Source of the DNA: Nemertoderma westbladi
Lineage: Eukaryota > Animalia > Xenacoelomorpha
Direction: 5' to 3'
Assembly: GCA_032718475.1 (NCBI GenBank)
Contig: JAUCBJ010005728.1
Coordinates: 1 to 48,729 of the forward strand
DNA length: 48,729 nt
The translations under genes and the position numbers were made by a program. This document shows positions 866 to 46,460 of the stretch, in pieces. Numbering within the stretch: position 1 is the first letter of the stretch; the number at the start of each line of letters is the position of its first letter. The notes below the pieces were generated by a model, which did no database searches, was not told the origin of the DNA, and saw only the letters and a list, made by a program, of their open reading frames with translations.

Positions 866-3064
866 CTAGTCCTTCTTACGTGAACGGCGTTTACAAAGTT
901 TTTTGAGGCTAGCAAGAGTCCTTTTCTCTTTGGGGCGAGCCACTTTACTAGGAGGGCTATAACTCCTGGGTGAGGGGTGCAATACAATTGCATCGGAAGG
1001 TTTCGGGTTACGGTCGGTGTATCCGCCGGTCGAGGTACCCGGTTGATCGATATCAACCTCAGTGGAACGAGGTCGAACAACATTTAGAGCGCGTTTCAAG
1101 ACAGCAGCTCTTACTGGTCCCTGACGGGTCGTTTGCACGAGAGTGGTAGGCGGACCGTGAGTAGTGAGAAATTGGTTTGATGGTTCTTTCCAATTCGCGT
1201 TCTCGGGCTCTATATTCATATGGTCGTCTATGAACTTCTTGTAGCTCTGGATGCGAGTTTATGAACAAGTCACCGCATGATTTATCAATGGTAGAAACTT
1301 TAAACTGTGTGTAGGATCTTCTGGTTTCACCATATAATATTGAGTTAAATTGACATAATAAGGGTGGTCTTTGATCTCATAAAATGAGTTCGGCAAAGGT
1401 CTAGCGCATAGGTTGACCTCGTGTACCATACGACGGACAAGATCCGCTCGATTGTCCGGAGGTTCAAAGAGTATACCGTCGACACGAGCAGCCTCGATTG
1501 GCGGACGTTGTAACATAGGAGCGTCAGCGATAAGATCTCTAGATCTTAAGTTGATATCAACCGGTTGGGGTTGTACCGTGGCGAAGAGTTTGTCTCCAAA
1601 ATGGGGAACCATTGAAGGATGAATAATGGTCTTGGAATAGAGATCAGTCATAAGGATTTGAGCTTCTGGCTGGGCTAAAGCTGCTTCTTCTCTCTCGTCT
1701 ATTTCGATGTGCTTCTCCTCGAGCTGATTTTCCTCCGCTTGTCATTGGAAGCGTTCGTCCAAAAACTCTTGCAGAGAGTAGGTTCGTCCGAGTTCGATAT
1801 CTTCTTCGAGGTTCTGGATTTCTCGATCGAACTGGGGTAAGTCTAATTCCTTTACCGCTTGGACTTGCTGCTGCAATTTACGTTTATCTAAACAATCGTA
1901 GGTTCCTTTTCCGAATTTTTGTCTAATAGCGTCTAACGCGTTTGGTAAAACGCTCTCCTCCACCTCGGTGACGGGTTGTATCGGGGTTAAACCGGGACGA
2001 TTATACGGGTTGAACGGCGATATTAGGTGTCCGCGTCCCAATCTGGCTAGGTAAGATGGGCGAATATCTAGGGAGCCCACAACTGGCGTGCCACCGACTA
2101 ATTGTTCGGGTAACACTAGATCTTTGAACAGTGAGTACAGTTCAGGAGGATCCGTTATACTATTAGGATCAAGAGTTTGAGGTCTCACCAGCGAATGAGG
2201 AGGTCTGACCGAGTATTTCGGAACTCTGATCATCGGTTAATTTAAGGATCGTTTGAGTCGAGCAAGCGTAGGTGATACGTCGAACAAGTTTTGCTCAAAA
2301 CTCCCATTAGTATAGCGAGTAAAACTGTGTTTAGAGCAACGTCTCCTCGGATGTTTATGTCTTTCCATTTGTTGGTTGGGTCTAGGGCATTCATCACAAT
2401 AATACCAAAGACGCATATCTTGTCGGGGAAACGCGGGTGATCTTTCTCCAGTTTTACAATATTCCTCCATCTGTTCGAAGCTATCCGGTACAACAGGTAG
2501 CGGTCGATCGGCGGTAAGATACATCATAGTGAAATAGAGTCGTTTGAGTTCTATCATAGGGTCATGATGTATACCTTGAGGATATCGAGTTTCTAGATTT
2601 TGTTGACTGGCTACATTGAGATATGTTTCTCTCAAGAATTCCAGATATTCGTTGAAATCACTGCGTTTATCCGGTTCTTCAACGTCTTCTCTTTCGAGTC
2701 GGTTTCGAATAGAATTTTCATGTTCGATTCTCAGTTTATCGTTCCGACTCCGCTGGGTATGATATTTAAATAGGACCATTTCCCTTTTGGTGTCTACATC
2801 GTCCGTATCGTGTAAATCGATAGGATGACCAGTAGTTAAGAAGACCATATACGTACCATTACGATGCGTATAGCGAGCGGTGAATTTTCTATAGTCCAAT
2901 TCACGCGTGAGCTGTTCCTTTGACATTGGCGGTTCGATATAACGGCCATCGTCCTACGTAGTGGGTTGACTAGCGTCGCAGCTTATTAAACTATCAACAA
3001 ACGCTTGCAATGGTAGGGTATATCGCTCCCTGATACCAAGATCATCTTCTATCAACTCAGTCAT
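866..3064 (-). pseudogene. Accessory ORF3 of element A (about 732 codons, putative Zn-binding protein) broken by four in-frame stops
   Basis: ORFs 2237-2926, 1742-2233, 1259-1651 and 866-1219 share one frame, with open linkers and an in-frame ATG at 3064. Stops at 2954-2956, 2237-2239, 1742-1744 and 1259-1261. Collinear similarity to the 40.3-41.6 kb region of element C. Confidence 0.8.
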
Positions 3065-16622: not shown

Positions 16623-17678
16623 GTAATGTCAATTATTTTATGATAACTGAATTTCTGAATTTTAGGGTTACTTCCCTTTTACTTGTTACCGTAATTAAGC
16701 AGTAGTCCAACTGATATTAAGACCTAATTGATGTATAACAGGCCTACTATTTTATAAATCTGTTTGAGTTGATTTATAATATATATATACCCGTACAAGG
16801 GGTTTAACAATATTTGAAATAAATGTTATTATTTCTGAATAAGGAGTCACTATACAGAAGCTGAACGCTCTCAGTGGAGTGCTACTTGTTGGACACTATT
16901 ACTGATAATTCTACTTTACTAAGTTACTTATCACTACAAATTACTTACAATTACAATGGGTTGAGATCACAATCTCTAAATAAACAATAACAAGTTACAC
17001 GTACAATTTGTTAGGGTAATTTTACAAGAAATCTACAAACCAGCCTAACAAGGAGTTAGAATTTCTGGTTCTTACAAACTGACAGGAAACTACGGTATTT
17101 GAAAACAATAAAGCAGTAGTAAGTAAGTTGCGTTGTGCAGATAAGAAAATACCACCGTCTGACGACTTATAGTCTTAGCTCTATAAGTACTACATCATGT
17201 ACCCAGAGTGTCCTTACCTAGAGGTTAATTACCGAAGCCAACCAAAGCTAACGTGCCTATTAACCACTTTACAACATAAATATACTGCCTACACACTAAA
17301 TTAATTTCGGAAAGTACTGTACTCTAAACCCTAAATTAGGTACAAGTACTTATACAACAAATAACTAGCAGTTAAATATACTTGAACAGCCAAAAGAACC
17401 ACGGTATCTGCTGGAGTGACCGGAGCACAAAATCACCAGTCTTTACCTATGCCAAGTAGCCCTGATGTGGTACCGGGGTTAATTTAACTATAACGGTATG
17501 TATAACAAGCACAATTACTGTAAGAACCAACTTGGGGAATTGAAGGTTGCGAATACTCGCATAGACTCTGAATAATAAATATTACGCTACCCGTGCAGAC
17601 TATACAAACAAAATACAGACCAAATGCTGGCAGACTACTGTCAAGTCTAAATAAACTACAGTATAAGCAGACTCCGAA

Positions 17679-19479
17679 ATGGGTCCGAAGTGTCAACAGA
17701 GTTTACGATCTCGTATTGAAAATGATACTAAGAATGCGTTTCCGAAGGTCAAAGTTCGTGACAGTAAGAAATCTTTCAATGAGTCACTCATTCGATGTCT
17801 AGTTCAGTGTCAGGCGAAGTTCAAAGTTACAACTAATGATCTTCTGGGCATTTCGATGGCTCTTGCAAATACTGTTTTTGGTCAAGAATGGGGAATGTCT
17901 CCAGATGTTGAGGATAATGAGTCAGATAGTAGTGAAGATTACGATTATGATGAATGTGATAACATTGGGAAGCGCCATCGAAAGTGTGTAGATTATTCCT
18001 ACATTTTGCCTAGCCGAAGGTCAATTTTAAACTATCTTGAAGATGCTTCATATCTAAACTTAGAAGTGGTTGCACGTCATTTGCTTGGAAAACAAGATGA
18101 TGATGCTGTCACAATAGGAATTGATGATACAACAAAGGCTGCAGGTCACAAGGTGTTCAATATTAAAACAGATTATATTACGATTGCTGGACCCTCAACT
18201 AATCGAGAAACATATACCACTGGTTATATCGAGAATCTCTCTCATTCAGGGGAAGATGCTGCTAAAGCATACGAATTCAAACTGACATGCCTTGCCCTAT
18301 TGACAGATAGTTCTGTTGAAGAAATTATGGAGCATGTCGACTTTTGGATGAGTGATCGTGGCAGTGATTGTAAAACAATGCTGGAAACGTTGGGTGTAGA
18401 GAAAGAAAAAACTTTGAAATGTTGTGCTCACGTTTACCCTTGTTTTAATTGCAATAGCAAAACTGTTGTCACCAAGTCATTCAGCACATTCTGTTTCTTT
18501 ATACAATGACTTTGTGCACTGGTTGGAAGTAAATGAACTAGAACATGCTGGTTTCAAGGGCTTTGTTTCAAATCGATTTGGTCGCATTGCTGAACTAGCG
18601 AAATTATATCTGAGACATCAGCATGATATACAGACTTTCTTTGATACAGTTGTCGATTATAATTCTAACAAGCTAGTTTTAGCAGTATCCACTTTTCTAA
18701 AAAACGACTGGTTTCAATGTGCTGTCGAAGTTTACTCATTAATCGGTGAGATAGTGATATTTCCTATTATGACATTCCTGGGAATTGACAAAAAATCTCA
18801 GTCTAGTAATTGGTCTGCTTCAAAGGTGTTTTTCAAAGATATGATAGCTAAACTCACAACTCTGAGAGAACGATTTGGGAGTAAGATAACTGGAAAGGCG
18901 CAATTAATAGGATCAGTGCTTGAGGAAGTGAACGATGCCTTTAATCGACAACTTAATCAGGTAGACTACTTTTTTAACGATGAGACAACTATGGATACTG
19001 AAAAATTGAGTCGTGCACCTTTGACTAACTTGGGTTGTGAATCGCGTTTTGCAACTCTGGACAATCAGCTGAAAGTTTCTGGAGGGATGACTACAGTAAA
19101 AACTCACTCCCGTAAATCAATTGTCGCAACAAACAAGTTCCTAGAGAAAGATGAGTTTATTCAACTTAGCGAGGTTGAAAAACGAAAAAAATGGAAATGG
19201 GCTAGAAGCAGCGAAGCAGTGAAAAAAACAAAAAAAGTAGAAACGGAATTCCTGATGAAAGTTAAAATGAGTAAGGCATTGGCACTAAAAAAGAAAGGAG
19301 AACTCAAGCAACAGAAGATGAAACGACTGCAGCTGGTTTTGGAGGATTGTAAAAGACACCAAGGGCCAGTCACTTGCAAACGCATCTCATGCTGCACGAA
19401 GGCCCACAACGTGTTTTGGTTTAATTGTAGGCCATGTGTGTATATGTGCTTTAATAAAATGCATTTTCCTATGCAATAA
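17679..19479 (+). pseudogene. Truncated, frameshifted DDE transposase with a C-x2-H motif (hAT/Mutator/P/Kolobok-type group); superfamily unassigned
   Basis: VTIGIDDTT (D1), WMSDRG (D2), CCAH, helical insertion with SNRFG, PLTNLGCESRF (E). Frameshift near 18430. A possible right end lies near 19752. Confidence 0.6.
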
Positions 19480-20115
19480 ATGTATGAATCGTTTCAACTA
19501 TCGTTATTTCTTCATTGATATCTCTTAAAATCTGCAGAATTTTCTTTATTTTTTTTAAATTTATTTACATTTTAGCGGTCACATCAAAATGCCCCCAGTT
19601 CCGGCATAAAATGATGTCATATGTCAAAAAGTCCCCCAAATTCGAAATCTGCACTTAATTTTGCCTAAGATATACCCCTGCAAATACTTGTATTTAGGAA
19701 ACCCGGCGTTCTAACCCAGTAGTATGACTTATTCTTTCGGGGGGGATTTACCTTACAACACTGGATGCCCCCAACTTCCTAACTAGCACTTTATCGGACA
19801 GACACTCTACACACACTGCAATCGCTTCAGACCTAACAACAGTTAGACAACAATCCGGCCTACAAATTATTTCTACACTCTGAGCAGACTTACACGCCTT
19901 CTGCTCAATATTACACTTACAGATAAATAAAACTGACAGAAATAAATAAGCTCCAAAAGAAATAAGGGGTGTACAGTCCCTACTCTCTTAAACAGCCTAC
20001 CAATATACAATATATCACAATTGAAATAATACTGGATAGTGGGTACCGGTAAGTACCAGTTTGGGTGGTTAGGTAGTTAGGCCTACAGTTTACCGTCCGA
20101 CCGGTACATTAGACT

Positions 20116-22137: not shown

Positions 22138-22749
22138 TGTGACGGGATCAAGGGATCCCGACCGGGTTAAATCCTTACGCGTCACACAGGCTGATGGTGG
22201 TTGGTAAAAGGGTTTGAGTTTGGTGTTCAACTGATAATATAATGTATAATATAAGATAGTGATAGCACGATTGAATGACCGGATAATAAATCAGTATATG
22301 GAATAAGGCAGTACTGCAGTGACGGTAGAACTATATTGCCGGCCTGCACTGAAACTGACCACTACTGAGTAAACTGAGTCACGGGCCGGTAACAAATAGA
22401 TAATATATATAACACACCGATATTACTCTACCGCTACATTACTGTGGCCATTCACCCAGCGGATGCCCTCCTTCGCCCCTATTGGCCAATAACCTACTTC
22501 ACGCCTCTCACTCTCTCTGGGAGTGTTTCCCCCCCCCCCCCCCCTGTTGGCCCCTGCTGGTTGTTTCCCCTTTCGAGGTGGATTGACCTCTAACCTCCCT
22601 TTGTGTGGCTTTGGGGTTTGTGTTCTCCCCGGCGTTGGCTGTGATACGAGATTGGTTATTGCCAATCTCGTATCTCCAACATATTGCTGAAAAAGGTGCC
22701 ACTTCCCAACTTTGTGAGGGTAGTGCGGCGGAATTGAATCCGCATCACA
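22138..22749 (-). repeat. 3' LTR of element B
   Basis: Direct repeat of 45864-46460; preceded on the minus strand by the polypurine tract. Confidence 0.95.
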
Positions 22750-26900: not shown

Positions 26901-27128
26901 TCTCCGGTGCGACGGCAATCTCCCGGAGTTCGACCCCACTGACTCCCTAACTCCATCTCTCCCACTCTACTACCGACGGTTCACTGTCCGTCCTTGCTCT
27001 CCAGTTGCTCGTAGCAACGATTCTTCTATTCTCTTCACTTCTTCTCTCTTCGACCTCCCGGTTAAACTCTACCATTCTTCTTCTCTCTTCCGACTGACGT
27101 CTTCTCGCTCGCCCACTCTCGGCACTAA
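23923..27128 (-). pseudogene. gag: Gag core and aspartic protease of element B (frameshifted)
   Basis: LPPVEPFKFDGSKPEEYLQF...LKYLQVYTGG...LDREYGHP, ALPIWLRSKW; protease VVPVKITG...LVDSGAAF, IIVGMD, TPFGWTLSGP. Confidence 0.88.
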
Positions 27129-27392
27129 CTGTATAAAATGGATAAATTCAAAATATATGGGCGTTTTATTTTCCTTATCTAAATATAATTGCACATCTTT
27201 ATGGCTTATCTAAATAATTATACTGTATGACGGCTAATATATTATACTGTATAACGGCTAATATATTATACTGTATAATATATTAGCCGTCATACAGTAT
27301 AATTATTTAGATAAGCCATAAAGACGCGCAATTATATTTAGATAAGGAAAATAAAACGCCCATATATTTTGAATTTATCCATTTTATACAGT
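27128..27392. repeat. Fold-back palindrome at the 5' end of element C
   Basis: 27128-27271 is the reverse complement of 27273-27392 plus one extra 24 bp unit; centre at 27272. Confidence 0.92.
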
Positions 27393-29263
27393 ATGTAGCC
27401 CTACGTACATAGTTTTGTAATAAAACATAAATAAATGGCTTTATGGTAGCAAGTTTCCTATAAAAACCTTGATGCAAGCTTGCTGTTATTGATTTCATTG
27501 TATTTGTCTTTTAAATTAGCTTTATATTAGATTGTGCTTAGTGTACTTTAAATATCGCGAAATTAATGTTAGGGCCAGCATCCAGGGACGCAATCCTAAC
27601 CATTCAGCAGCCAGGGACGTGATCCATTACCATATATGGTAATAAATTGCGATTTGGAAGCCCTGAGGTTCACAATTCGGCTTCCTTATTGGCCCAGCTG
27701 TTCCAGGTTGGTCTGATGGTGGGGCGGATTGGGGAACCAATGAGAGGAATATTGCGTCATCCCTGTTGCATCACCTATAAATTGGCTGTATTTCCGGTAT
27801 GTGCATCTTAATATCTCAATTGTTACAGCAGTACCAGTGGCAGTATTGTAGTTTTGTTTCTGGTTAATTGTTAATCTTTCGTCTATCTTTCTGTATTTCT
27901 CAATCAATTACTGCAAATTACAACTTTGAATTATGATTTCTACTTTGGATTATTAATTCCTACGTGATTTAAGATGTGATAATCCCACGGGATTTCTTTA
28001 GACTGTCAGACTGTTTATGATTGCATGCGCCGCTACAGTGGCTATTCATTCTATGTTCTAATGGAGGGCTAAGGTACCGGTAGGCGGGCGCACTGGGAGG
28101 AAGCGACGGAAGGGAGTGCAGAGGATCCAAAGCGGGGCGATGCTGGCGGGGGCCACCGTTGCGGTCGGAGCTAGTCAGTTGAGGACCGGGGACCAGCCGC
28201 TGTTACAGTATTAGGGGGCTGACGATCCAGATTTCCGTCCCTACTTTGTAGTTTTAGGGGGGCAGAATTTGGGTTTAGTTAGGAGTCCCATGTGTGGCTT
28301 TGGGTGACCTGTGGTTCTTACACTGACTGACTGATTGACTGATTGGATGACTAATACTGGTATACTGATGTACTAATGTATGGGTATTTAGTGCACTAGC
28401 TGATTGGTGTAGTTAGCGCTATCTGCCGTACTACTAACTTAGTGCTACGCTATTTGTGTTGTGTTGCTAAAGAGTGCCTGATTCTTAAATGTGAATGCTT
28501 AGATAGGCGCCTTTCCCTTTGATTGATTTCCATTTCTTAGTTTATGCTTATTAATTGCTAATTAGGTCAAAATAATACCGTATTTAGACTGTTGCTAGTA
28601 TAAGCCCCAGTACGTAAAAAATTAGAAGTACGTATTCTGGAATATCTAGTAATTAGTACGCGAATTTGTATTTATGACTGTAATTAATTTAGCGATAAAA
28701 TAAAATAAGAATTTGTACGCAGCATAGCGGAGAGCAGTTTAAGTAATTGTTTTAGAATACTGTAGACTATTCACGCTAGGCGGTTATTTGAAAATAGCGG
28801 GGCAACGGGCTGACAGCAGTGTCCAGTATACAGTACAGCAGTAGTAAGTTTGCTGATTTAAAACCAGCCAAAGGCCAAGTTTCAGCACCTAGGAAAGTAA
28901 CAGATCTATCCCCCTTAATATTAAAACATTCTCACAAATTGTTCTGCCAGTGAATTCCAGTATTTTGCGATAAGTGAACTCCGAGTGCTAGGTCACCCGC
29001 ACTCGTTTTAAGTAGTTTAGGGAACCGATTCGGGTTTATTGTTTTGGTTATTCCCGCGTGGCTCATAGATTCGAACAGTTAGCTCTCTGTTGAGCGATCA
29101 ACAGAGAAAGGAACAAGCGATTTGCAGGAGCCGTATAAAATTAGTAAAATATATTAGCGGACTGCCAGGTTAGCGCCATCCAGCAGTGAGAAGCAGTTTT
29201 GTGTTTAGCAGCAGTGCTGCAGTGCGGCAGTAATAACGCGCTCCTGATCACCCCTGTTTAACA
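27273..29263 (+). repeat. 5' LTR of element C (start replaced by an inversion)
   Basis: Direct repeat of about 42560-44548, identity ends at CCCCTGTTTAACA. Confidence 0.93.
27721..27781 (+). promoter_or_regulatory. Putative LTR promoter of element C
   Basis: GC box GGGGCGG (27721), CCAAT (27737), TATAAA (27776); conserved in the 3' LTR at about 43010-43070. Confidence 0.5.
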
Positions 29264-29273
29264 GTAAGAACCA
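29264..29273 (+). other. Non-tRNA primer-binding site candidate of element C (GTAAGAACCA)
   Basis: Immediately follows the LTR end; exact reverse complement of TGGTTCTTAC at 28312-28321 in the LTR. Confidence 0.6.
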
Positions 29274-30186
29274 TTTTTTTACGTTTATTTTTTACTGTTG
29301 CTTTGCAACAGTGAGAAGTAACATTTGTTCACTAATCGCGAAATACAGCAATTCATTTGGGCCATTAGGGTAAATTGTAAATTAGTAAGTTTTTGAAAAT
29401 TTTAGCTAGGTTTGTGAGAATTCAGTTTCGACCAAAATTTATATAATAAAATCTAGAGTTTTTGTACTGGTATGTTGGATAACCGCTTAATTATTTTATA
29501 CCATCTGGAGATACATGGCGAGACGGTGCTTCTGAGTTTGGGGTTTGTGTGGGCCTGCGGGTTCGGTTTGCAATCAGCGAAAAGACTGAAACTTTGGACA
29601 CAGACGTGGAATCTCACAGCAAACAAGGTTAGTTGTTCTGTTGGCACTATAGTATTTGTGGAAGCAGTAAAAAATTACCGGTTATTTAACTGCGAAGCTG
29701 AACTCAATTTATTAGTTAGGTTAGTTAGGTTTAGCCAGCCATGGTGTTTTGGATTGCTCAGTTAGAGAGAGAGAGAGAGAGAGAGAGTCGCAACCCGAAG
29801 GTGTAGCCACGCGCTAGTGGATATAGAAATAATATTTAAAAATAAAATTACATTGATTTTGAGCTATATATATATAAAGTTAGAAATATTTGGGTGGCAA
29901 ATTCATTTTTGAATATTTTGAATTAGATTCAGAAATTATTTTTGCGTCATACCGGTATTTAAATGCTATATAATAGCTATATAATAATATTTTTGTTTAA
30001 ATATTATACCGGTATTTGCTATAACTATATATCATTAAATTCACAATATTATATTGCGAATTTATTTTGACATTTGAGACCAAATAATTTATTTGGTACA
30101 TAATTTAATTGTATTTTCGATTAAATTAATACATCTCGAATTTTGTGAGATTTTAGCCGGAAGGCAAATAATTATATACTTAGACA

Positions 30187-33100
30187 ATGAGTGTCTCAGA
30201 CAAGGAGGCACTAGAGGACAGCTATGAGACGGCGGCCGGACCGCCGACTGATAACAGTGTAGACATAACTGTCGATGACAATGCTGACTATGACGATGCA
30301 GCGAGTGACGCTGACGTAAGTGAACAGGAGGACGAGACAGTAACTAGTGAGGAAGAACAACAACCTCAGGTAATAGTATTAGGATCCCCTACCACTACTG
30401 TAAGGAAGGATTGTACAGCAGCCCGACCAGAGGTGAGTGATAAGGAGGGTAGAGTAGCAGAAGCGAGAGCCCGGAGCCCGGTTTCCAGACCTGTGGGTAT
30501 GGTAAGTGCCGTGGCCCCAGCGGCTATAAGGAGTACCCGTAGTTCCCGAAATAATCCTTCAAGTCCACCAAGTGTGAGTCAGGTAAGCGAACAGCAACTG
30601 GACATCGCGATAAAGAAGAAACTTCGCGCGCATGCCGGACATATAACTCGGACGACGGATAAGGTAAGGAAGATGCTAGCCGACTCTGGTAACATCGGAA
30701 TGGAAGGGTTAGTAGAGATTAGAAAGGGATATAACTCAGCATTATTCAAGCAGACGGAGGAGCTTGCAGTCCTACCAAAGAGAGCAGTGGAGTCCCAGTC
30801 GAGCGACGTGGCGACGAGGGTTTACGACAGGGTTTTAGCAGCCTTGTTGGAGCGTTATCGGAGCGATTTCGGCGAGTTAGGACGGAGAACTGGTTGCTAT
30901 TGGCATCACAAGCGCAGGCGACTCAGGTGAGTGACGCAGAGTCAAGATCCTTAGTGGAGCGGGAAGAGACGCAGGATAAAGAAGAGCGCCATTATCAATG
31001 GGAAGTTACCAGCTGGCTGATGCAGAGTGGTGTGGTGGTACCGGGCCAGGTGCTACCAACGACGGACAACATCCAACAGAGAACGTTAACTCCACCCGAC
31101 GACGCATCTAGAGACAGTGGCGATTCCCAGGTTAGTCACGTGCGAGGGAAGGTTATATGTGCTAGATCCCTTGTTTCTCACAACTCGGTGGAGGAGAGAA
31201 GATGCCGACTAGATGAACAGCAGGCAGAAGTTTTGCGTGCATCGGAAGCACGGAAGGAAGCCGAGCGGGAGCGGGAGCGCACACGTAAGTTAGACGCAAA
31301 GTTGCGAGAGTTGGAAGACAAAGGTAAGCGTGAGCAAGCCGAACGCGAACAGGAAGAACGAGAACTCCAACTCGAACGCGAACTCCAACTCGAACACGAA
31401 CGCGAAGAACGCAAACTCCAACTCGAATGTGAACGGGAAGCCAAGGAACGCGAACAAAGGAGACGCGAACTCCAACTCGAACGCGAGCGCAAGGAGTGCG
31501 AACTTGAGTGCGAGAAGGAGCGAAGGGCGTTGTATGAAGAGAAGGCGCGTGTGGAAGAAGAGAGCGCAGCGAGACGAGCGAGGGAAGAAGAAGAACGTAA
31601 ACTGGTGCAGTTGGAAAGTGCGAGAGTAAACTTAGAGAGCGAAGAACGGACCAGGAAGGCGAATGAAATTGCCGAGAAGGGGATGCGAATGATCGAAGAA
31701 TGTGGGGCGAGTGTAGGTACTGAGTTGCGAGAACTGTTCGCATTGCAGAAGGCCGAACAGGAAGCGAGAACTCCGACTACACGCGAGTCGACGACGACCA
31801 GAATTCCTATACCTGGTCCAGCTATTACGAGTACTCGGATCGCTAAACAGTTCTCTACATATCGCACATTAGTGCTTCACCCATCGCGCAGAATCCGCGT
31901 CACCAGGTCACCGCACCACTACATACCGAACGAGACGATGAGGAGTTTAGAGAAACTCCGACAGGGCGAGTATTTGGCGAACTGAACCCGCGGGTTTGGA
32001 ATACGTGGACGGAGCGCCGACCCAGTTTGACGGAGAACTTCCTGGTTAAACCGGAAGAGGGATCATATGAGAGACAGCGGATTACTCAGATAGAGACGAC
32101 TATACAACAGAACCCTAGCCAGGAATTTATTACGAGGGATGAGTTAAGTGCTAGTTTAGCGCAAGCTATATCGCCGCACATCCAACCTATAACGGACATG
32201 CTTAGTAACCTACGGTTAAAGGAAGCAGCCCAGGTAAGAAGTAATTCAAATCCTAGCAGGCCTGAGTTAGATAAAGTCCAACCTAGTCAACAAGTACGCA
32301 TATCGGAGGCAACTATACCACATAGACCTCAGGTAAGGACGCCTGTCCTGACTATCCATAATCCCGATTTCGAAAACTCGGCCGAGAAGTTTATACAAGA
32401 GGCTTGGGTCAGGGCTTCGGCACGCAAACCAACGCGAGCGCTGAGGACTGATACTGACTCAACCAATGAAGAGAAAGACATGAGACGTCAGAAGTCCCGA
32501 AACTATAAGGAAAGAAGGACCGACGCGGAGCAGGTAAGTTTTAATCCCCGGGAAAGGACCAGACTTAATAACCCTGCAGAACTAAACCATTTGTTAACCC
32601 GGAACGACGCAACCCTTAGAGACATAGGTAAGTTTGCTGCTAGGCAAGGACTGCTGACGCAACAACCCCAGAAGTTTATGGGCAACCACAAACATTGGAG
32701 GACGTTCAAAACCTATGTCGACGAACAACTGACCAACAGCACCTTTACTCCCAAGGAGAAGTTCAACTATTTGCTTCAAATGCTCCATCGAGAACCTAGA
32801 GCCATTGCTGACATCTTCGTCGGCAATGAAAGAGCATTTGAGTTGGCAATGAAGACGCTTAGCAACATTTACGGGAATAAAACCAAGATGGCACAGTCGA
32901 TAGTGGAAGACTTGGGGAAGGGCAGAAGGATTACAACTCCGTTAGAGCTGTTGAACTTAGCGAATGCTATTTCGAACGCATTGGATATCTTGATGACGGT
33001 GAATCTACCTCATCATGGTGATCACGCCGAAGTTTTGAAGAGCGTAATTAGACGTTTAAACATGCGTTACAGACAGAAATGGCGCAAATTAGAGAATAAG

Positions 33101-33620
33101 TTGGAGGGTCAAGGTAAGGTGTTGACACTTCAACATATTCATGACATGATAGCCACAGACGCAGTAGCAGAGATGAAATCAAATTTCTCAGAGGAGAATA
33201 TGAGAGAGTCTAAACCTGTTGTTACCGGTAAGTCTATGGTAAGTTTTGACGATGACAGGACCACTGTGACATTTAACTCAGTAGACAGATATAATTCGAG
33301 TACCCCAGCCTTTAGATCAGACTCGCGCGTATGGTCAGGTGAGCGGTTAGATAGACCTAGGTTGAAGCAACAGGAGGATTTGTAGGTTGCCAATTCTGCT
33401 TACTAAAGGAGGTAAGATCTGACGACCATAAGTTAGATAGTTGCAGACGGTTCAAAGAATTAACTTCGGAACAGAGAAGAGTTCAAGTGCGGACGTTGGA
33501 CACCTGTTGAGCATGTCTTGCGCCAGGTCATGTACGGCGGCAGTGCCCGAACAGCAAAGATAGATGCATGGAATGCGGCAGACTACATCACAAATTGCTA
33601 CATGCGGATTTCCATACTCC
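30187..33620 (+). pseudogene. gag: Gag of element C (acidic N-terminus, ERE-rich coiled coil, capsid-like domain, three Cys-His motifs), frameshifted
   Basis: ORFs 30187-30930, 30894-31985 and 32027-33385 (KFMGNHKHWRTF...EKFNYLLQML...IYGN); then CQFC..H..C, C*AC..GH..C and CMECGRLHHKLLH at about 33390-33603. Confidence 0.9.
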
Positions 33621-33839
33621 AACGGACCATTACTTACAGCGAAATCCTCAAAGGAAAGGGAGCAGAGAACCCGTATCAACAAGGAGAAATACGTACACCG
33701 GCATTCAAGACGATGGTTATCAACCAGGTTCGTCGGACGAGGATGGCGAGTTGAGCGTGAGAGAGGTGACCTGCCAAGGTTTCACCGCGGATAGTTCATC
33801 GACCAGCGCGCGGACATATTTATCATCGGCCACGTCGGA

Positions 33840-36800
33840 AATATTTAGCGTGATTCCGGTGAAACTTACTGGCGATAAGGGATCTAAGCGAATATATGTG
33901 ATGTTGGACACTACGTCCACATTATCTTATATCGACGAGGAAGTGGCCAGAGCCGTTTCTAGCTTCCAGGACGCAGAGGAAATCCAAATAGAGTTAAAGT
34001 CTATGCACGGGGTAGGAGACCTCAAGGGACACAGAATTTCGGTAGAACTAGACTCCCTACTTCCGAGATACCAGCACACTCGACAAGAACGGAGAGCTTT
34101 GCCATTAGATGGATTTAAGTGTCTAGCTATGAAGGGATTCGGCAGGCAGTTAGGTAAGGTGCCGCCGATGAGTCCCATAGCACAGGAGTATTTTGATAAA
34201 CTCAGAGTACCGAGACACTAGGTAGGTTATAGGAATGTTTCTATGTTGATTGGTGCAGAACAGCTGATCGCACACCAAATATGGGAAACGAGACCAGCTG
34301 AGCCGCATGTAAATGGACCATATGCCCATACGACTATATTAGGTTGGTATACACGAGTACCCATGTCTTATGAGTTTACAGGTGGCGACAAGCCAATGGA
34401 TAGATACGACGGATTAAAGCCTATAACTGAAACACCGTTAGTAGAACCACCAGACATAGACGAGTTTAGGAGAACCTGTATTGACCATTATAGTGACGTT
34501 AGCGAGTCGGACGAGGAGTTGATTCCCGATAATGTTAGATTGTCGGAACCACTTCACAATGACCGGACAGATAGCGAACCCGAGGACTACTGTTATCAGA
34601 CCCGTGGGTCTGGTTCAGCGGCCCACGCTACTTATCTGAGCAACGTTTTGACTTATACCGACATAGTGGAGGGTCAAGTGGCTAGATATCGAGACCTTGA
34701 CATTTTCCAATACAGTGAGGAGGAGCTACAGAAGGAATTGATACGCCAGGACCTCAAGACAGGAGCCAGAACCGTCAAATGGCTGGATAGGGACGCAATG
34801 GAACCCAGTGGATATGACCTAGCCATGTCTGCTGATGAGAAACGGTTGCTAGAGATGATGGAAGGCACCATACGTCTGCTACCGACTGGACATTTTGAAG
34901 TTGGAATGTTGTGGCGTCGACAACCTCCTAAGTTGGAGAACAACTACAACTTAGCCTTGAAAAGATTGAACGGAGTAAGCGCTCGGTTGTTGAAGAATCC
35001 AGACATTAGGGAGAAGTATTGCACCCAGATCAACAACTATTTCGATAAGGGATTTGCTGGGAAGGTAGAGGACCCTGACTTAGTGACAGACCAGACTTAT
35101 TACCTCCCACACCACTATGTGTCTCACCCTGACAAGCCTGACAAAGTCCGAGTAGTCAACGACTGCGCAGCAGTCTACAGAGGTATGTCCCTGAATTCAG
35201 AATTGATGGATGGTCCCAACCTGAACAATTATTTGATAGGAATACTGTTGCGTTTTAGACAGCGGCGATTCGCATTTACTTGTGACATCGAGGCGATGTT
35301 CCACCAGGTAAGAGCCTGTAAGGAAGACCAGGATAGCCTTCGATTTCTCTGGTTTGAGAATGAAGACTTATCCGGCCCAGTGGTTACATACCAAATGTAC
35401 GTTAGGATATTTGGCACCCGCGATAGTCCAAACGGCACGCTGTTTGTTCTAAAGAAAATGGCAACAGCCCAGATTGGTAAGTATCCAGTAGAGGTTATCG
35501 AGTCCATCTTGAGAAACTTCTACATGGACGACGGATTGGTGTCCAAGGACACAGCGGAACAAGCCATAGAAGTGCCTACAGAAGTACGGCCTACAGAAGT
35601 GCTTGGCTACAGGGGGTTTTCCTCTAACCAAGTTCACTACGAACTCGGAGGCCCTATTAGAGTCGTTCCTGGTAAAAGATCGCGGGAGCGGAGACATAGA
35701 ATTAGGGGTAGAACCCATCCCCATGGCGCGAGTACTGGGACTCGCTTGGAACCCGAACACGGACAAGTTCCAGGTAAGAGTTAGATTTGAGCCCAGTAGC
35801 CCAGACAAAGTTTTGACAAAGAGAATTTGCTTATCGACATTGAGTAGACTATTTGACCCGATGAACTTTATCAGTCCGGTAATATTACAGGCACGAGCGT
35901 GCATGAGGAAAATTTGGTTGTCCGACCTAGAGTGGGACGAACCAATATCTCCTATACATACAAAGCAGTGGAGAGAGTGGGAAGCCGAGTTGCATGTATT
36001 GAAAAATATAGATGTACCCCGCTCCTACTTTCCGAATCAGCTGGTATTTCCAGCTGATCTCGAACTGCACCTATTTAGTGACGCAAGTGACACCAGCTTT
36101 GGTATGGTAGCCTACCTTCGCCGAGAGGTAAGTCAAGACAAGTTTGAGACGGCTTTTGTGACTTCTAGATCAATGACAATGCCGGTCAAATACATGACTG
36201 TCCCTCGTGCAGAGTTGCAGGCGGCAGTAGTTTCAGTCGAGGTAAGTAAGCAGGTAACAGAGGAGTTAGACACATCATTGACCTTATTCTATTGGACGGA
36301 CGCATCCTTAGTGTTAGTATACATTGCAGCCAACGATATTGCACTAAAGACATTTGTGGCCAACAGACGCGCTCAGATCGTCGACTTTTCGACGAAGGAA
36401 CAATGGAGACATTGTCCGGGAGTGTTAAACCCAGCCGACATAACTTCGAGAGGTGCAATGCCGGCGGAATTCTGTCAGAAAGAGTCCCAGGAGTTTTGGT
36501 TGCATGGACCTGATTTTCTAACGAGGACACAGGAACATTGGCCAGAGCGACTGAAGATAGTGACCAATCCGATGCCAGAGGATGCAGAAGTCAAAGTGGA
36601 GAAAGTCTCTAAGTCAAAGTCGAAAGCCAAACTCAAGTCATTGGAGCGGCCTGAAGAGTCATTGGAGCGGCCTGAAGAGTTATTGGAACGGCCCGGAGAC
36701 CTGTCAGACCAACAGACTTACGTGACTACTAGGTCCGGAAGGGTAAGTTATGACATAAAACCACCCTTACAGACTAAACCAGAGTCACAATTGGTAAGTG

Positions 36801-38324
36801 ACGGACAGAAAATGACCGACACAATGGAGCCTTTGGTTTCCAAACCTGCGGGTTTGGATTCGAAACTTCCATTAATTAGCGGACAACCGTCGCTGGCATT
36901 AGAGCCATGTAGTATTTATGACAAATTACTAAATTCGTCTGTCTCTTGGCTGACAATTTGTAAAAGAACTGCGTGGTTAAGCCGATATGTTTCGTACCTT
37001 TGTTTAAAACATTTGGAACATTTAGGAGAACAAATGAGCGCTAATAGTGAGCGAATTCAGAAATTGAAACAACCTCTGACAGAGGATGAGATTGATCAAG
37101 CGGAATTAAAGCATTTGAAACATTATCAAATGTGTGCCTTCCCAAAAGAATTCTATCTATTATCGGCTCAACGACCAGTTCTCTATAAACCCCTTAGAAA
37201 ATGGAGTCCATTAATCCATAAGGGTTTGATTTGTCACAGATCGAGAATCCAGACTGTCGACATAAACTCACAGTTTAGGGTCCCAGTGATAATCCCTAGT
37301 CACCCAATAGAATTGCAAAGAGCAATTCTATGGGATATACATAAGAGGTTGCATCACGCGGGAAAGTTACACTGTTTGTCGGCAGCGAGACAGCGATTCA
37401 TTATATTGCAGCCAAGCAGGGCAGTAGGCACTATGTATGACGCCTGTCTGGTTTGCAAGAGAGTGAACGCCAGAGTATTGGAACAGGAGATGGCTGAACT
37501 CCCGGAAGCGAGAGTGCAGGCATATGACCCACCCTTTACAAATACAGGGGTGGATTGCTTTGGTCCGATTGAGGCAAAGAGTGGACGGCTGACCCACAAG
37601 CGATGGGGCTACTGACATGCATGGCTAGTAGGGCCATACATATCGAGCGTGTAGCAAACATGTCGACCAAATCTCTGCTCCTGGCCTTAAAGAGATTTAT
37701 GGCCAGGAGAGGATTAGTAAAGGTGTTCTACTCTGACAAGGGTACAAACTATGTCGGAGGGAATAGCGAGTTGAACGCGGCTCACAGAGCAGCGCAGAAT
37801 AGAGAAATTTCTGCAGCACTTTTGCCGCAAAGAGTAGAGTGGAGATTTAATACTCCAGAAAGTCCTTGGAGAGGAGGAAGTTGAGAGCGTTTAGTTCACT
37901 CTGTAAAGCAGGCCATTGCCAAGACGTTGCCTGTAAATAAACAACTTACCGACGACGAGCTGGTCACAGCTTTCATCGAAATCGAGCATACACTAAACTC
38001 GAGGCCGATAGCTATGTTGCCAGACGGTGTTGCATTAACGCCGAATCATTTGCTAATGCAGATTCCAGCATTTCTTGTGCCGGCATCAGAACCCATTAGT
38101 GCCGACCTATACAGTCGTAAGAGCTGGAAGGTAACACAATTTGTGGCGTACACATTCTGGGAATATTGGCGGGAATATTATCTTCCCACCATATCTACCA
38201 GATCAAAGTGGTACAAACGGTTCGGAGCCTCCAAAGAGGAGACTACGTATTGATAACCGAACCGATTGTCAAGAGAAAATATTGGGAGACTGGAGTCATC
38301 TTGCACATACACCCAGACGTGCAA
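33840..38324 (+). pseudogene. pol: pol of element C (protease, RT, RNase H, integrase) with stops and frameshifts
   Basis: YVMLDTTST, YYLPHH, KVRVVND, CDIEAMFHQV, FYMDD, LHLFSDAS, PRAEL, NPADITSRG, HHCC, GVDCFGP, SDKGTNY, GGS*ERL. Confidence 0.95.
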
Positions 38325-39604
38325 CTACTAGGATCGGCATGCTGCATTGCAGCTGCATTTTTAAGAATGCTGTGCCGGCTTGTCAACAAAATTGCACCGC
38401 CACAACTCCCTATCACCCATGACATTTGCTAGATCATCCGCATCTTTAAGGCCAGTGTCCTTTAAGATGCGTCTCAAGAAAGTCATGGGCTGTCCACCAT
38501 GCTTATTCACTCCATGAGGCTGCCAAAGTACAAGATTATGCACTGGCTGGTCCTCACGGCGAAAGCAATGTCCTGCAAAGCGGAGGCGATTTTGTTCTAG
38601 TGTCAAGCTTGGGGGAACCAATGAGACACCTCCAATGTTATATAGTGTCTGGTTGGAGATGTGTGCATTGTACTTGACACAATGAACCCGGCGTAGCATT
38701 CTTGTGAATGTGCCATCCAGAGATTTGGTGTCCTCAGCAGTTAGAGCCCAGCATGGACTCCCGTAGAGGAGTACTGGAACTACTGCTGCTCTAAATAATC
38801 GGACCTTAAGTTTCCGATTAATTCTAGGTGACTTCCAAATCCTGGAAAGCCTATTCAAGGCTGCCCATGCCTTTCCCTTACGTATTCGAAGGTCCTCACC
38901 TGACTTCCGGATCCATGATCCCAGGTAACAGAAGTAGTCCACATGCTGAAGCATACCATCCTTTGAGCTTATGCTCATCCGATCAGAGACTTGCTGAGGA
39001 CTTTCAAAGTTAACTGTCAGAATTTTGGTCTTTCTGGAGTTAATAAAAAGACCAACACTAGAAGCAGCATGTTCTAATGAGCTGAGGAGCCGTTGGGCTC
39101 CCTCTAATGATTCTGAGAGTACTCCTAAGTCATCAGCAAAGTCTAGATCAGTTAGGTACTTGGCAGGATTTCCTCGACTTCTGGAGCCAGTAGGTGGAGT
39201 TATCATCACCCCATCATCATTATGATGATCTAAGGACATGCGTAGAACATAGTCTACCACAATAATGAACAAGAATGGTGCAAGTGTGTCTGCTTGGAGG
39301 ACGCCCCATAACACTTCAAATGGTTCTGTGTCACCGTCAACAGTAGACACAAATGTTGTCGAATCATCGTATACTGATCTGATTGTTGCAATAATTTCAT
39401 CAGGAATCCCATATAATGAAAGTATGCTGAACATACGTGACCGAGAGACTGAATCAAAGGCCTTGAAGAAGTCAACAAAGATAACAGCCAGATGCCTGTC
39501 TTTCTTTTTTGATAATTCTTCAATTATCCTTCTAAGAGCCAAAATGGGCTCCATGGTCCCACGACCTTTACGGAACCCATTCTGATTTCCACGGAGCAGT
39601 CTTG
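38325..39604 (-). mobile_element. 5'-truncated non-LTR retrotransposon (RTE/RTEX-like LINE)
   Basis: 9 bp TSD GACGTGCAA (38316-38324, 39605-39613); very short 3' UTR ending in TAGTAG; removal restores integrase HIHPDVQNIVRTVTV. Confidence 0.92.
38361..39554 (-). CDS. LINE reverse transcriptase, C-terminal portion
   Basis: FVDFFKAFDSV, GVLQADTLAPFLF, LDFADDL, FCYLGS, LLYG, RLRFAGHCFR. Confidence 0.92.
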   Translation of the reverse strand: MEPILALRRIIEELSKKKDRHLAVIFVDFFKAFDSVSRSRMFSILSLYGIPDEIIATIRSVYDDSTTFVSTVDGDTEPFEVLWGVLQADTLAPFLFIIVVDYVLRMSLDHHNDDGVMITPPTGSRSRGNPAKYLTDLDFADDLGVLSESLEGAQRLLSSLEHAASSVGLFINSRKTKILTVNFESPQQVSDRMSISSKDGMLQHVDYFCYLGSWIRKSGEDLRIRKGKAWAALNRLSRIWKSPRINRKLKVRLFRAAVVPVLLYGSPCWALTAEDTKSLDGTFTRMLRRVHCVKYNAHISNQTLYNIGGVSLVPPSLTLEQNRLRFAGHCFRREDQPVHNLVLWQPHGVNKHGGQPMTFLRRILKDTGLKDADDLANVMGDRELWRCNFVDKPAQHS

Positions 39605-39787
39605 GACGTGCAAAACATAGTGCGCACAGTCACTGTGAAAATTAGGTGCAAGTGTCCGCACCCAAATAAGTGTAAAACTAATGGTTTACACACCTTGGAC
39701 CGACCGGTCCAAGATATTGTGTTATTAGAGGAGACACGCATCGAGACGGGAGATTATAATTTGTCTCCTGCCTCAAACAAAAATTAG
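39605..39787 (+). pseudogene. pol: Integrase C-terminus of element C
   Basis: DVQNIVRTVTVK...LDRPVQDIVLLE matches the element A tail DGLVRSVELV...LNRPVGRLCLLE. Confidence 0.85.
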
Positions 39788-42372: not shown

Positions 42373-42492
42373 TAGAATTATTATAGTACCAAGTTATTTA
42401 GATTATTTGAAAGCGAATTTGTTTGTTTATTTACATCGCCCTATACTCTTCTACAATTGGAGGGAAACATTGCTTGATTTCCCTTGGAGCGG

Positions 42493-44548
42493 TGTTACGG
42501 TATGTGGCGCTGTACCTACATTAGCCCGTATTATACAGTATAATATATTAGCCGTTATACAGTATAATATATTAGCTGTCATACAGTATAATTATTTAGA
42601 TAAGCCCTAAAGACGCGCAATTATATTTAGATAAGGAATAATAAACGCCCATATATTTTGAATTTATCCATTTTATACAGTATGTAGCCCTACGTACGTA
42701 ATTTTGTAATAAAACATAAATAAATAGCTTTACGGTAGCAAGTTTCCTATAAAAACCTTGATGCAAGCTTGCTGTTATTGATTTCATTGTATTTGTCTTT
42801 TAAATTAGCTTTATATTAGATTGTGCTTAGTGTACTTTAAATATCGCGAAATTAATGTTAGGGCCAGCATCCAGGGACGCAATCCTAACCATTCAGCAGC
42901 CAGGGACGTGATCAATTACCATATATGGTAATAATTTGCGATTTGGAAGCCCTGAGGTTCACAATCCGGCTTCCTTATTGGCCCAGCAGTTCCAGGTTGG
43001 TCTGATGGTGGGGCGGATTGGGGAACCAATGAGAGGAATATTGCGTCATCCCTGTTGCATCACCTATAAATTGGCTGTATTTCCGGTATGTGCATCTTAA
43101 TATCTCAGTTGTTACAGCAGTACCAGTGGCAGTATTGTAGTTTTGTTTCTGGTTAATTGTTAATCTTTCGTCTATCTTTCTGTATTTCTCAATCAATTAC
43201 TGCAAATTACAACTTTGAATTATGATTTCTACTTTGGATTATTAATTCCTATGTGATTTAAGATGTGATAATCCCACGGGATTTCTTTAGACTGTCAGAC
43301 TGTTTGTGATTGCATGCGCCGCTACGGTAGCTATTCATTCTATGTTCTAATGGAGGGCTAAGGTACCGGTAGGCGGGCGCACTGGGAGGAAGCGACGGAA
43401 GGGAGTGCAGAGGATCCAAAGCGGGGCGATGCTGGCGGGGGCCACCGTTGCGGTCGGAGCTAGTCAGTCGAGGACCGGGGACCAGCTGCTGTTACAGTAT
43501 TAGGGGGCTGACGATCCAGATTTCTGTCTCTACTTTGTAGTTTTAGGGGGGCAGAATTTGGGTTTAGTTAGGAGTCCCATGTGTGGCTTTGGGTGACCTG
43601 TGGTTCTTACACTGACTGACTGATTGGATGACTAATACTGGTATACTGATGTACTAATGTATGGGTATTTAGTGCACTAGCTGATTGGTGTAGTTAGCGC
43701 TATCTGCCATACTACTAACTTAGTGCTACGCTATTTGTGTTGTGTTGCTAAAGAGTGCCTGATTCTTAAATGTGAATGCTTAGATAGGCGCCTTTCCCTT
43801 TGATTGATTTCCATTTCTTAGTTTATGCTTATTAATTGCTAATTAGGTCAAAATAATACCATATTTAGACTGTTGCTAGTATAAGCCCCAGTACGTAATA
43901 AATTAGAAGTACGTATTCTGGAATATCTAGTAATTAGTACGCGAATTTGTATTTATGACTGTAATTAATTTAGCGGTAAAATAAAATAAGAATTTGTACG
44001 CAGCATAGCGGAGAGTAGTTTAAGTAATTGTTTTAGAATACTGTAGACTATTCACGCTAGGCGGTTATTTGAAAATAGCGGGGCAACGGGCTGACAGCAG
44101 TGTCCAGTACACAGTACAGCAGTAGTAAGTTTGCTGGTCTAAAACCAGCCAAAGGCCAAGTTTCAGCCCCTAGGAAAGTAACAGATCTATCCCCCTTAAT
44201 ATTAAAACATTCTCACATTCAATGTGTTCTGCCAGTGAATTCTAGTATTTTGCGATAAGTGAACTCCGAGTGCTAGGTCACCCGCACTCGTTTTAAGTAG
44301 CTTAGGGAGCCGATTCGGGTTTATTGTTTTGGTTATTCCCGCGTGGCTCATAGATTCGAACAGTTAGCTCTCTGTTGAGCGATCAACAGAGAAAGGAACA
44401 AGCGATTTGCAGGAGCCGTATAAAATTAGTTAAATATATTAGCGGACTGCCAGGTTAGCGCCATCCTGCGGTGAGAAGCAGTTTTGTGTTTAGCAGCAGT
44501 GCTGCAGTGCGGCAGTAATAACGTGCTCCTGATCGCCCCTGTTTAACA
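42493..44548 (+). repeat. 3' LTR of element C (2056 bp)
   Basis: TGTTA...TAACA termini; preceded by GGAGCGG; 24 bp tandem repeats near the start. Confidence 0.93.
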
Positions 44549-45852: not shown

Positions 45853-45863
45853 TATAGTTCTAC
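45853..45863 (-). other. Non-tRNA primer-binding site candidate of element B (GTAGAACTATA)
   Basis: Immediately follows LTR end CGTCACA; exact 11 nt reverse complement of LTR segment 46052-46062 (22325-22335 in the 3' LTR). Confidence 0.65.
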
Positions 45864-46460
45864 TGTGACGGGATCAAGGGATCCCGACCGGGTTAAATCC
45901 TTACGCGTCACGACAGGCTGATGGTGGTTGGTAAAAGGGTTTGAGTTTGGTGTTCAACTGATAATATAATGTATAATATAAGATAGTGATAGCACGATTG
46001 AATGACCAGATAATAAATCAGTATATGGACTAAGGCAGTACTGCAGTGACGGTAGAACTATATTGCTGGCCTGCACTGAAACTGACCACTGAGTAAACTG
46101 AGTCACAGGCCGGTAACAAATAGATAATATATATAACACACCGATATTACTCTACCGCTACATTACTGTGGCCATTCACCCAGCGGATGCCCTCCTTCGC
46201 CCCTATTGGTCAATAACCTACTTCAAGCCTCTCACTCTCTCTGGGAGTGTTTCCCCCCCTGTTGGCCCCTGCTGGTTGTTTCCCCTTTCGAGGTGGATTG
46301 ACCTCTAACCTCCCTTTGTGTGGCTTTGGGGTTTGTGTTGTCCCCGGCGTTGGCTGTGATACGAGATTGGTTATTGCCAATCTCGTATCTCCAACATATT
46401 GCTGAAAAAGGTGCCACTTCCCTTTGTGAGGGTAGTGCGGCGGAATTGAATCTGCATACA
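45864..46460 (-). repeat. 5' LTR of element B
   Basis: Direct repeat of 22138-22749. On the minus strand: CCAAT near 46204, TATATATA 46128-46135, Inr-like TCAGTT 46096-46101. Confidence 0.95.

Follow-up and report, generated by a model that had tools for sequence, protein, structure and literature searches.

In the DNA of Nemertoderma westbladi, the retrotransposon that we call element C carries, just past the end of its 5′ long terminal repeat (LTR), ten nucleotides that are complementary to a stretch inside that same LTR. This arrangement raises a question: does the element prime reverse transcription with its own RNA rather than with a host tRNA? BEL/Pao elements, which occur in animals only (PMC554778), are described as being primed by host tRNAs, and their replication has been called poorly understood (PMC8742986). 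An earlier note on this locus had proposed fold-back self-priming for C and for its neighbor, element B. We examined this proposal using the whole stretch of 48,729 nucleotides (hereafter, the window) and related loci found elsewhere.

Three BEL/Pao elements in the window

The content of the window is three BEL/Pao LTR retrotransposons: A, which makes up the left part on the minus strand; B, also on the minus strand; and C, which lies on the plus strand and is nested in B. In Pfam searches, all three elements matched DUF1759; A and C also matched Peptidase_A17 and an integrase zinc finger, and A matched DUF5641. In C, the Pao-type domains Integrase_H2C2, DUF1759 and Peptidase_A17 were found, and its homologs were proteins with Pao-type domains (best identities about 30–40%). 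The Pol pieces of A and C are 34–45% identical to one another. For B, a weak match in the protease region was the only trace of Pol found. ARAGORN detected no tRNA genes within the window, and a search of viral contigs returned no relative.

The gag-pol region of C (30184–38250, plus strand) is spread over several frames and contains DUF1759, a reverse transcriptase (RT) with the YMDD motif, Peptidase_A17/RNase H and the integrase zinc finger. Behind the integrase, at 38361–39629 on the minus strand, lies a fragment with RVT_1 and DUF6451, i.e., a piece of RT in reverse orientation. The two LTRs of C, which bear TG…CA ends, align over 2028 columns with 96.9% identity (27240–29263 with 42529–44548), and both halt at TGTTTAACA. 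The 3′ LTR (42493–44548, plus strand; TGTTA…TAACA) starts with TGTTA at 42493, directly behind the polypurine tract GGAGCGG (42486–42492, plus strand); hence, we regard the LTR end as the true terminus. From the 5′ LTR (27240–29263, plus strand), the first ~36 nt are absent. In their place stands an inverted copy of the LTR's next ~150 nt (27128–27280), recognized as an inverted match, with no target-site duplication (TSD) visible; the left end of C is a near-perfect palindrome of 265 nt (27128–27392) that looks like a snap-back duplication.

The LTR-gag-pol-LTR layout, DUF1759, Peptidase_A17, the RT-RNase H-integrase order and the polypurine tract of C are those of the Belpaoviridae, as is the DUF5641-type integrase end of A. 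We assign C, a broken LTR retrotransposon, to BEL/Pao. It departs from the family profile, in which the primer-binding site (PBS) spans 18 nt and fits tRNA-Arg or tRNA-Gly, and the LTRs are 0.2–1.2 kb long (PMC8742986): the LTR of C measures 2.06 kb, and TGG is absent from the first 94 nt of its leader, so that no such tRNA-Arg or tRNA-Gly site is present there.

Complementary stretches in C, B and A

The candidate PBS of C, GTAAGAACCA, starts at the first base past the LTR end (29264–29273, plus strand). As had been claimed, its exact complement, the candidate self-primer TGGTTCTTAC, occurs in both LTRs (28312–28321, plus strand, and 43601–43610); with the PBS it can form 10 Watson-Crick pairs plus one G-U. 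Pairing anchored at the element's own LTR end, as in Tf1, is therefore found in C. The distances reported earlier were also right: 942 nt separate the 3′ end of the complement from the LTR end, and 536 nt separate the TATA candidate (TATAAA, 27776–27781, plus strand, from a motif scan) from the complement. The start-site motifs conflict, since the initiator-like TTAGTT at 28275–28280 (plus strand), about 35 nt before the primer, is a rival start candidate. The 5′ part of C could also be shortened by an intron. Downstream of the candidate primer lies the first AATAAA past the TATA candidate (28699–28704, plus strand).

How easily could such a match arise by chance? We ran the calculation that the earlier note had suggested. 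When the LTR end was fixed and only contiguous matches counted, the 10-mer of C was equaled in 48 of 20000 dinucleotide shuffles. Under our widest rule (a spacer of 0–4 nt and one GT..AG excision), the count was 35 of 500, and C by itself is accordingly modest evidence. When the junction was left free, 61 of 200 shuffles did as well, which is not significant; the best ACA junction was the real LTR end. Among 1500 real leader offsets compared with the LTR of C, nine reached at least 10 nt. The case for C thus depends on where the match lies and on the relatives. In addition, GTAAG and CTTAC resemble splice donors and acceptors, which makes matches of this kind easier to obtain than the shuffles imply. 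In a survey of all contiguous and GT..AG-joined ends, with wobble allowed, 28312–28321 was the sole candidate in C that passed the cut-offs. A splice-built primer for C was considered and discarded: none emerged among 6586 GT..AG pairs, and wobble yielded none better. Inspection by eye for a U12-type intron ending in AC found no donor or branch match.

Element B provides a second case. Its 5′ LTR (45864–46460, minus strand; 597 nt) and 3′ LTR (22138–22749, minus strand) are flanked on both sides by a 5-nt TSD, which fixes the ends of the element. Directly after the LTR end is the candidate PBS GTAGAACTATA (45853–45863, minus strand), and the candidate primer TATAGTTCTAC is located at 46062–46052, with its second copy at 22335–22325. 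The claim that B pairs with its own LTRs through 11 letters unlike those of C thereby held, and the statistics were stronger: 4 of 20000 dinucleotide shuffles matched the 11-mer with a fixed end and contiguous pairing, and 0 of 1000 did so under the widest rule. Two of 1500 leader offsets reached at least 10 nt against the LTR of B, namely, the actual PBS and the offset shifted from it by +1.

RNA folding gave a mixed picture. The primer–PBS helix of B had a probability of 0.96–1.0 when folding began at the initiator-like site at 46101, and it was part of the predicted minimum-energy fold, where a second stem continues it and a hairpin immediately precedes the LTR end. This probability fell to 0.01–0.11 when folding started at the primer itself. 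In C, just 5 of the 11 windows that were folded contained the 942-nt helix, which was displaced when more leader was included. The fold-back proposal is favored by the position of the match, by B and by the differing letters of the relatives (see below); as a whole, the earlier interpretation holds in part. Two further structures compete with that helix: a 29-nt imperfect inverted repeat between U5 and leader (28953–28981 with 29327–29355) and a short hairpin across the LTR/PBS junction (29260–29267 with 29290–29297). The junction of B is likewise spanned by a short complement.

The dependence of the intramolecular helix on the folding window is what one might expect if the primer acted in trans, i.e., if an LTR transcript that is short or has been cut, and that derives from a second packaged RNA, the 3′ LTR or a solo LTR, annealed to the PBS. 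The duplex alone has a predicted energy of −12.8 kcal/mol, and a trans primer would make the 942-nt fold-back unnecessary. The helix of B, however, sits within a larger intramolecular fold, and Tf1 primes in cis (PMC7175516). We judge priming in trans to be distinctly improbable and favor pairing in cis.

Element A contains the same 10-mer pair as C (17066–17529, minus strand; 17529–17520 and 17075–17066), and its helix was likely in all four folded windows (mean probability about 0.6–1.0). We nonetheless rejected A as a third case, because the pair is missing from most other copies of A and its site is not established as an LTR/PBS pair. In contigs from four runs, representing at most three samples, 93–100% of the summed depth (by run and place) at 17523, 17527 and 17528 carried bases other than those of the window copy. 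The LTR end of A is not fixed, as the 3′ LTR leaves the window and a DNA-transposon-like insert interrupts the 5′ part at about 17683; with the LTR thus incomplete, 20 candidate junctions gave no convincing match. A rough two-fold step in depth near 17310 might mark a different LTR end, contig depth being an unreliable guide. The pair of A, at no proven PBS, indicates that such pairs can arise away from one. In the window copy, three differences within six bases complete the complement to the site 454 nt away and render it identical to the pair of C; templated conversion and a retained ancestral state are the candidate explanations. The insert (17683–19700; ORFs at 17667–18509 and 18418–19479) had no Pfam hit, and other copies of A are unbroken at its site, where they have a splice-acceptor-like signal. 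Nor did Pfam match a stop-interrupted frame of about 1.7 kb (1259–2953, minus strand) between the integrase and the 3′ LTR of A.

Self-complementary and TGG-type sites among related families

An alignment search supplied 80 metagenome loci and five loci from genome collections, which fell into 52 clusters; many had no LTR or leader and were left unscored. Five of the loci (L081–L085) are BEL/Pao Pol sequences in bacterial MAG records and are probably misbinned animal contigs. Seven families had an LTR end fixed by two copies; for another 17 loci, the scan left the end free. The splice and spacer rules were set after the data had been seen, the spacer rule from reading the sequences, and the same rules were applied to the shuffles.

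Four of the seven end-fixed families had a complement of 10–15 nt, contiguous in one and present in the other three only across a predicted LTR intron. The contiguous case, L023, reads ACA|GTTACTTCGA and pairs over 10 nt (2 of 1000 shuffles). Across a GT..AG excision, the matches were 12 nt in L027, 13 nt in L028, 15 nt in L032 (of one family with L028) and 11 nt in L074, with 0–3 of 1000 shuffles doing as well. In these three families, the site starts with GT 2–3 nt past the LTR end, and the predicted GT..AG intron is 72–97 nt long. L027, L028 and L074 had been tried as negative controls and turned positive once the 2–3 nt spacer was permitted; L004, a member of the L027 family, gave no signal under the zero-spacer rule. 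The remaining three families (L007, L009 and L060) have a TGG-type site instead, TGGTCC at 0–7 nt past the LTR end, and a self-complement of just 4–5 nt. Sites of the form TGGTCC…CGA, which would fit a tRNA-Tyr primer, occur at L007:2616, L009:63 and L060:7105 and also in L067 and L031; this tRNA is absent from the list in the ICTV profile.

The free-end scans revealed matches of 11–14 nt across a predicted intron in L005 (0/500 shuffles), L042 (11/500), L064 (2/500), L070 (4/500), L016 (1/300) and L059 (0/100). All six start with GT, although this was not demanded. L041 gave 10 nt (39/100, not significant). The free-end scans of L035, L031, L018, L067, L050, L052 and L054, several of which are cut short, produced no signal, L004 being the eighth such locus. 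Apart from these scans, L063, in which the middle of the LTR is missing, has a 9-nt match starting at an AG. In the 5′ regions of L056 and L069, the best LTR–leader complement was 14 nt long and did not begin with GT (0/300 shuffles each).

The PBS begins with GT in 13 of 13 self-type families; positions 1–2 are invariant, and positions 3–10 vary, with primer and PBS covarying between families. The primers of the tabulated self-type families all end in AC. By these predictions from sequence, the pairing stretch of most relatives would be assembled across an LTR intron, a feature that the earlier reading had missed. From the end of the primer to the LTR end, the distance is 65–284 nt in the 12 other families vs. 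938–942 nt in C, more than three times the longest.

That disproportionate loop is one reason to ask whether the lineage primes itself while the 10-mer of C matches by chance, given an LTR of 2 kb, the true primer having decayed or being the product of a non-GT..AG splice. The wide-rule shuffles, a branch-point-like TACTAAC at 28432 and the status of C as a dead copy all speak for this account. It conflicts with the result of the strict test, the lack of any other candidate in C that passes the cut-offs, the ready-made primers of B and L023, the AC end that the primer of C shares with all others and its retention in both LTRs. We therefore find it unlikely and continue to favor 28312–28321.

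Could the pairing instead be a regulatory structure, serving in packaging, translation or the masking of a splice donor, while a host RNA primes here or at TGGCGAG (29516)? GTAAGA at 29264 is compatible with a splice donor, TGGCGAG is present, and the family is listed with tRNA-Arg/Gly priming (PMC8742986). The earlier note had itself named two observations that would refute self-priming, a longer LTR followed by a TGG PBS and a GTAAGA that is a splice donor only and has no conserved complement, and neither was encountered. The LTR of C is not longer: TGGCGAG sits 252 nt past its end, those 252 nt are absent from the 3′ LTR, and the TGG sites of relatives lie 0–7 nt from the end. A G at donor position +5 occurs in just 2 of the 13 self-type sites. 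Moreover, a host primer would leave the match of each family to its own LTR unexplained. A purely regulatory role is, in our estimation, rather improbable, and priming by the element's own RNA is preferred.

Trees were built solely from the loci of this search, and none of the named clades (Suzu, Sinbad, Sparrow, Surcouf, Tas, Dan and Flow) was assigned. The L023 family adjoined A and C in a 315-column tree (support 84) and did not in an 1182-column tree; given this disagreement, we name no close relative of C. The branches on which A and C join are long. Families with self-type and TGG-type sites intermingle, with L059 placed among L007, L031, L060 and L067.

A model for self-priming and its implications

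By analogy to Tf1, we think it likely that the 10-mer of C at 28312–28321 is the primer of reverse transcription, acting in cis in place of a tRNA; our confidence in Tf1-like self-priming for the lineage is higher than that for this particular 10-mer. In Tf1, bases 1–11 pair with the PBS, and the RNase H cut falls between base 11 and base 12 (PMC7175516). The RNA of C would fold back over a 942-nt loop, pairing 28312–28321 with 29264–29273, and would be cut after 28321, 3′ of …UUAC, the predicted nuclease being the element's RNase H. Minus-strand synthesis would then start at 29263, extend into U5 and run back to the cut. Strand transfer would proceed via the segment that stretches from the cut to the poly(A) site, and whatever lies upstream of the cut would be regained from the RNA's 3′ LTR part. 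If the cut falls inside the LTR, the poly(A) site must lie downstream of it; the AATAAA of C at 28699 fits, and in 7 of the 13 families an AATAAA or ATTAAA follows the primer within the LTR, while in 6 none does. Because the upstream part would be restored from the 3′ LTR, an LTR intron could persist. In most relatives, the splicing of this intron would create the pairing stretch; the ready-made primers of C, B and L023 possibly stem from a spliced 3′ LTR that was copied once.

Known self-priming elements offer both parallels and contrasts. Like C, Tf1, Tf2, Tj1 and the Tf1/sushi group have no tRNA site, a PBS of 10–11 nt that complements their own LTR transcript and a need for a cut to free the 3′ end of the primer (PMC7175516, PMC4600332). 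Unlike the Tf1/sushi elements, which are Ty3/gypsy with a chromovirus-related Pol, C has a Pol with Pao-type domains and does not belong to that group. Also unlike Tf1, the primer of C is 942 nt from the PBS and is predicted to lie between 35 and about 500 nt from the start, the primers of most relatives span a predicted intron, and the PBS always begins with GT. Self-priming has likewise been predicted from LTR–PBS complementarity for the plant Tcn1 and TAR (Ty1/copia) lineages; these belong to other superfamilies, and the available text of PMC6317226 mentions no BEL/Pao case or splice-built primer. We tentatively suggest that priming in BEL/Pao may be distinct from that of Tf1, with a primer that would be excised from the interior of the RNA, would always end in AC and would mostly be assembled beforehand by host splicing of an LTR intron; in C, it would lie hundreds of bases from the cap and across the 942-nt loop.

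The literature searched, Repbase reports, subscription papers and supplements aside, contained no report of self-priming or of a splice-built primer in BEL/Pao. The Cer7-type BEL elements of C. elegans reportedly encode a primer of their own and would resemble C in this; they would differ in that it is a separate, tRNA-like RNA near the 3′ LTR and that the site is of the TGG type. The terms "PBS" and "tRNA" do not occur in PMC554778, PMC3118150 or PMC6238403.

The model makes exact predictions: an RNA should end at 28321, and the cut should follow a GT/AC rule. LTR finders that demand a tRNA PBS would miss these elements or place their ends wrongly. If the signature described here reflects priming, then tRNA-free initiation would be common in a third LTR superfamily, would be interleaved on the tree with the TGG-type mode and could rely on host splicing.
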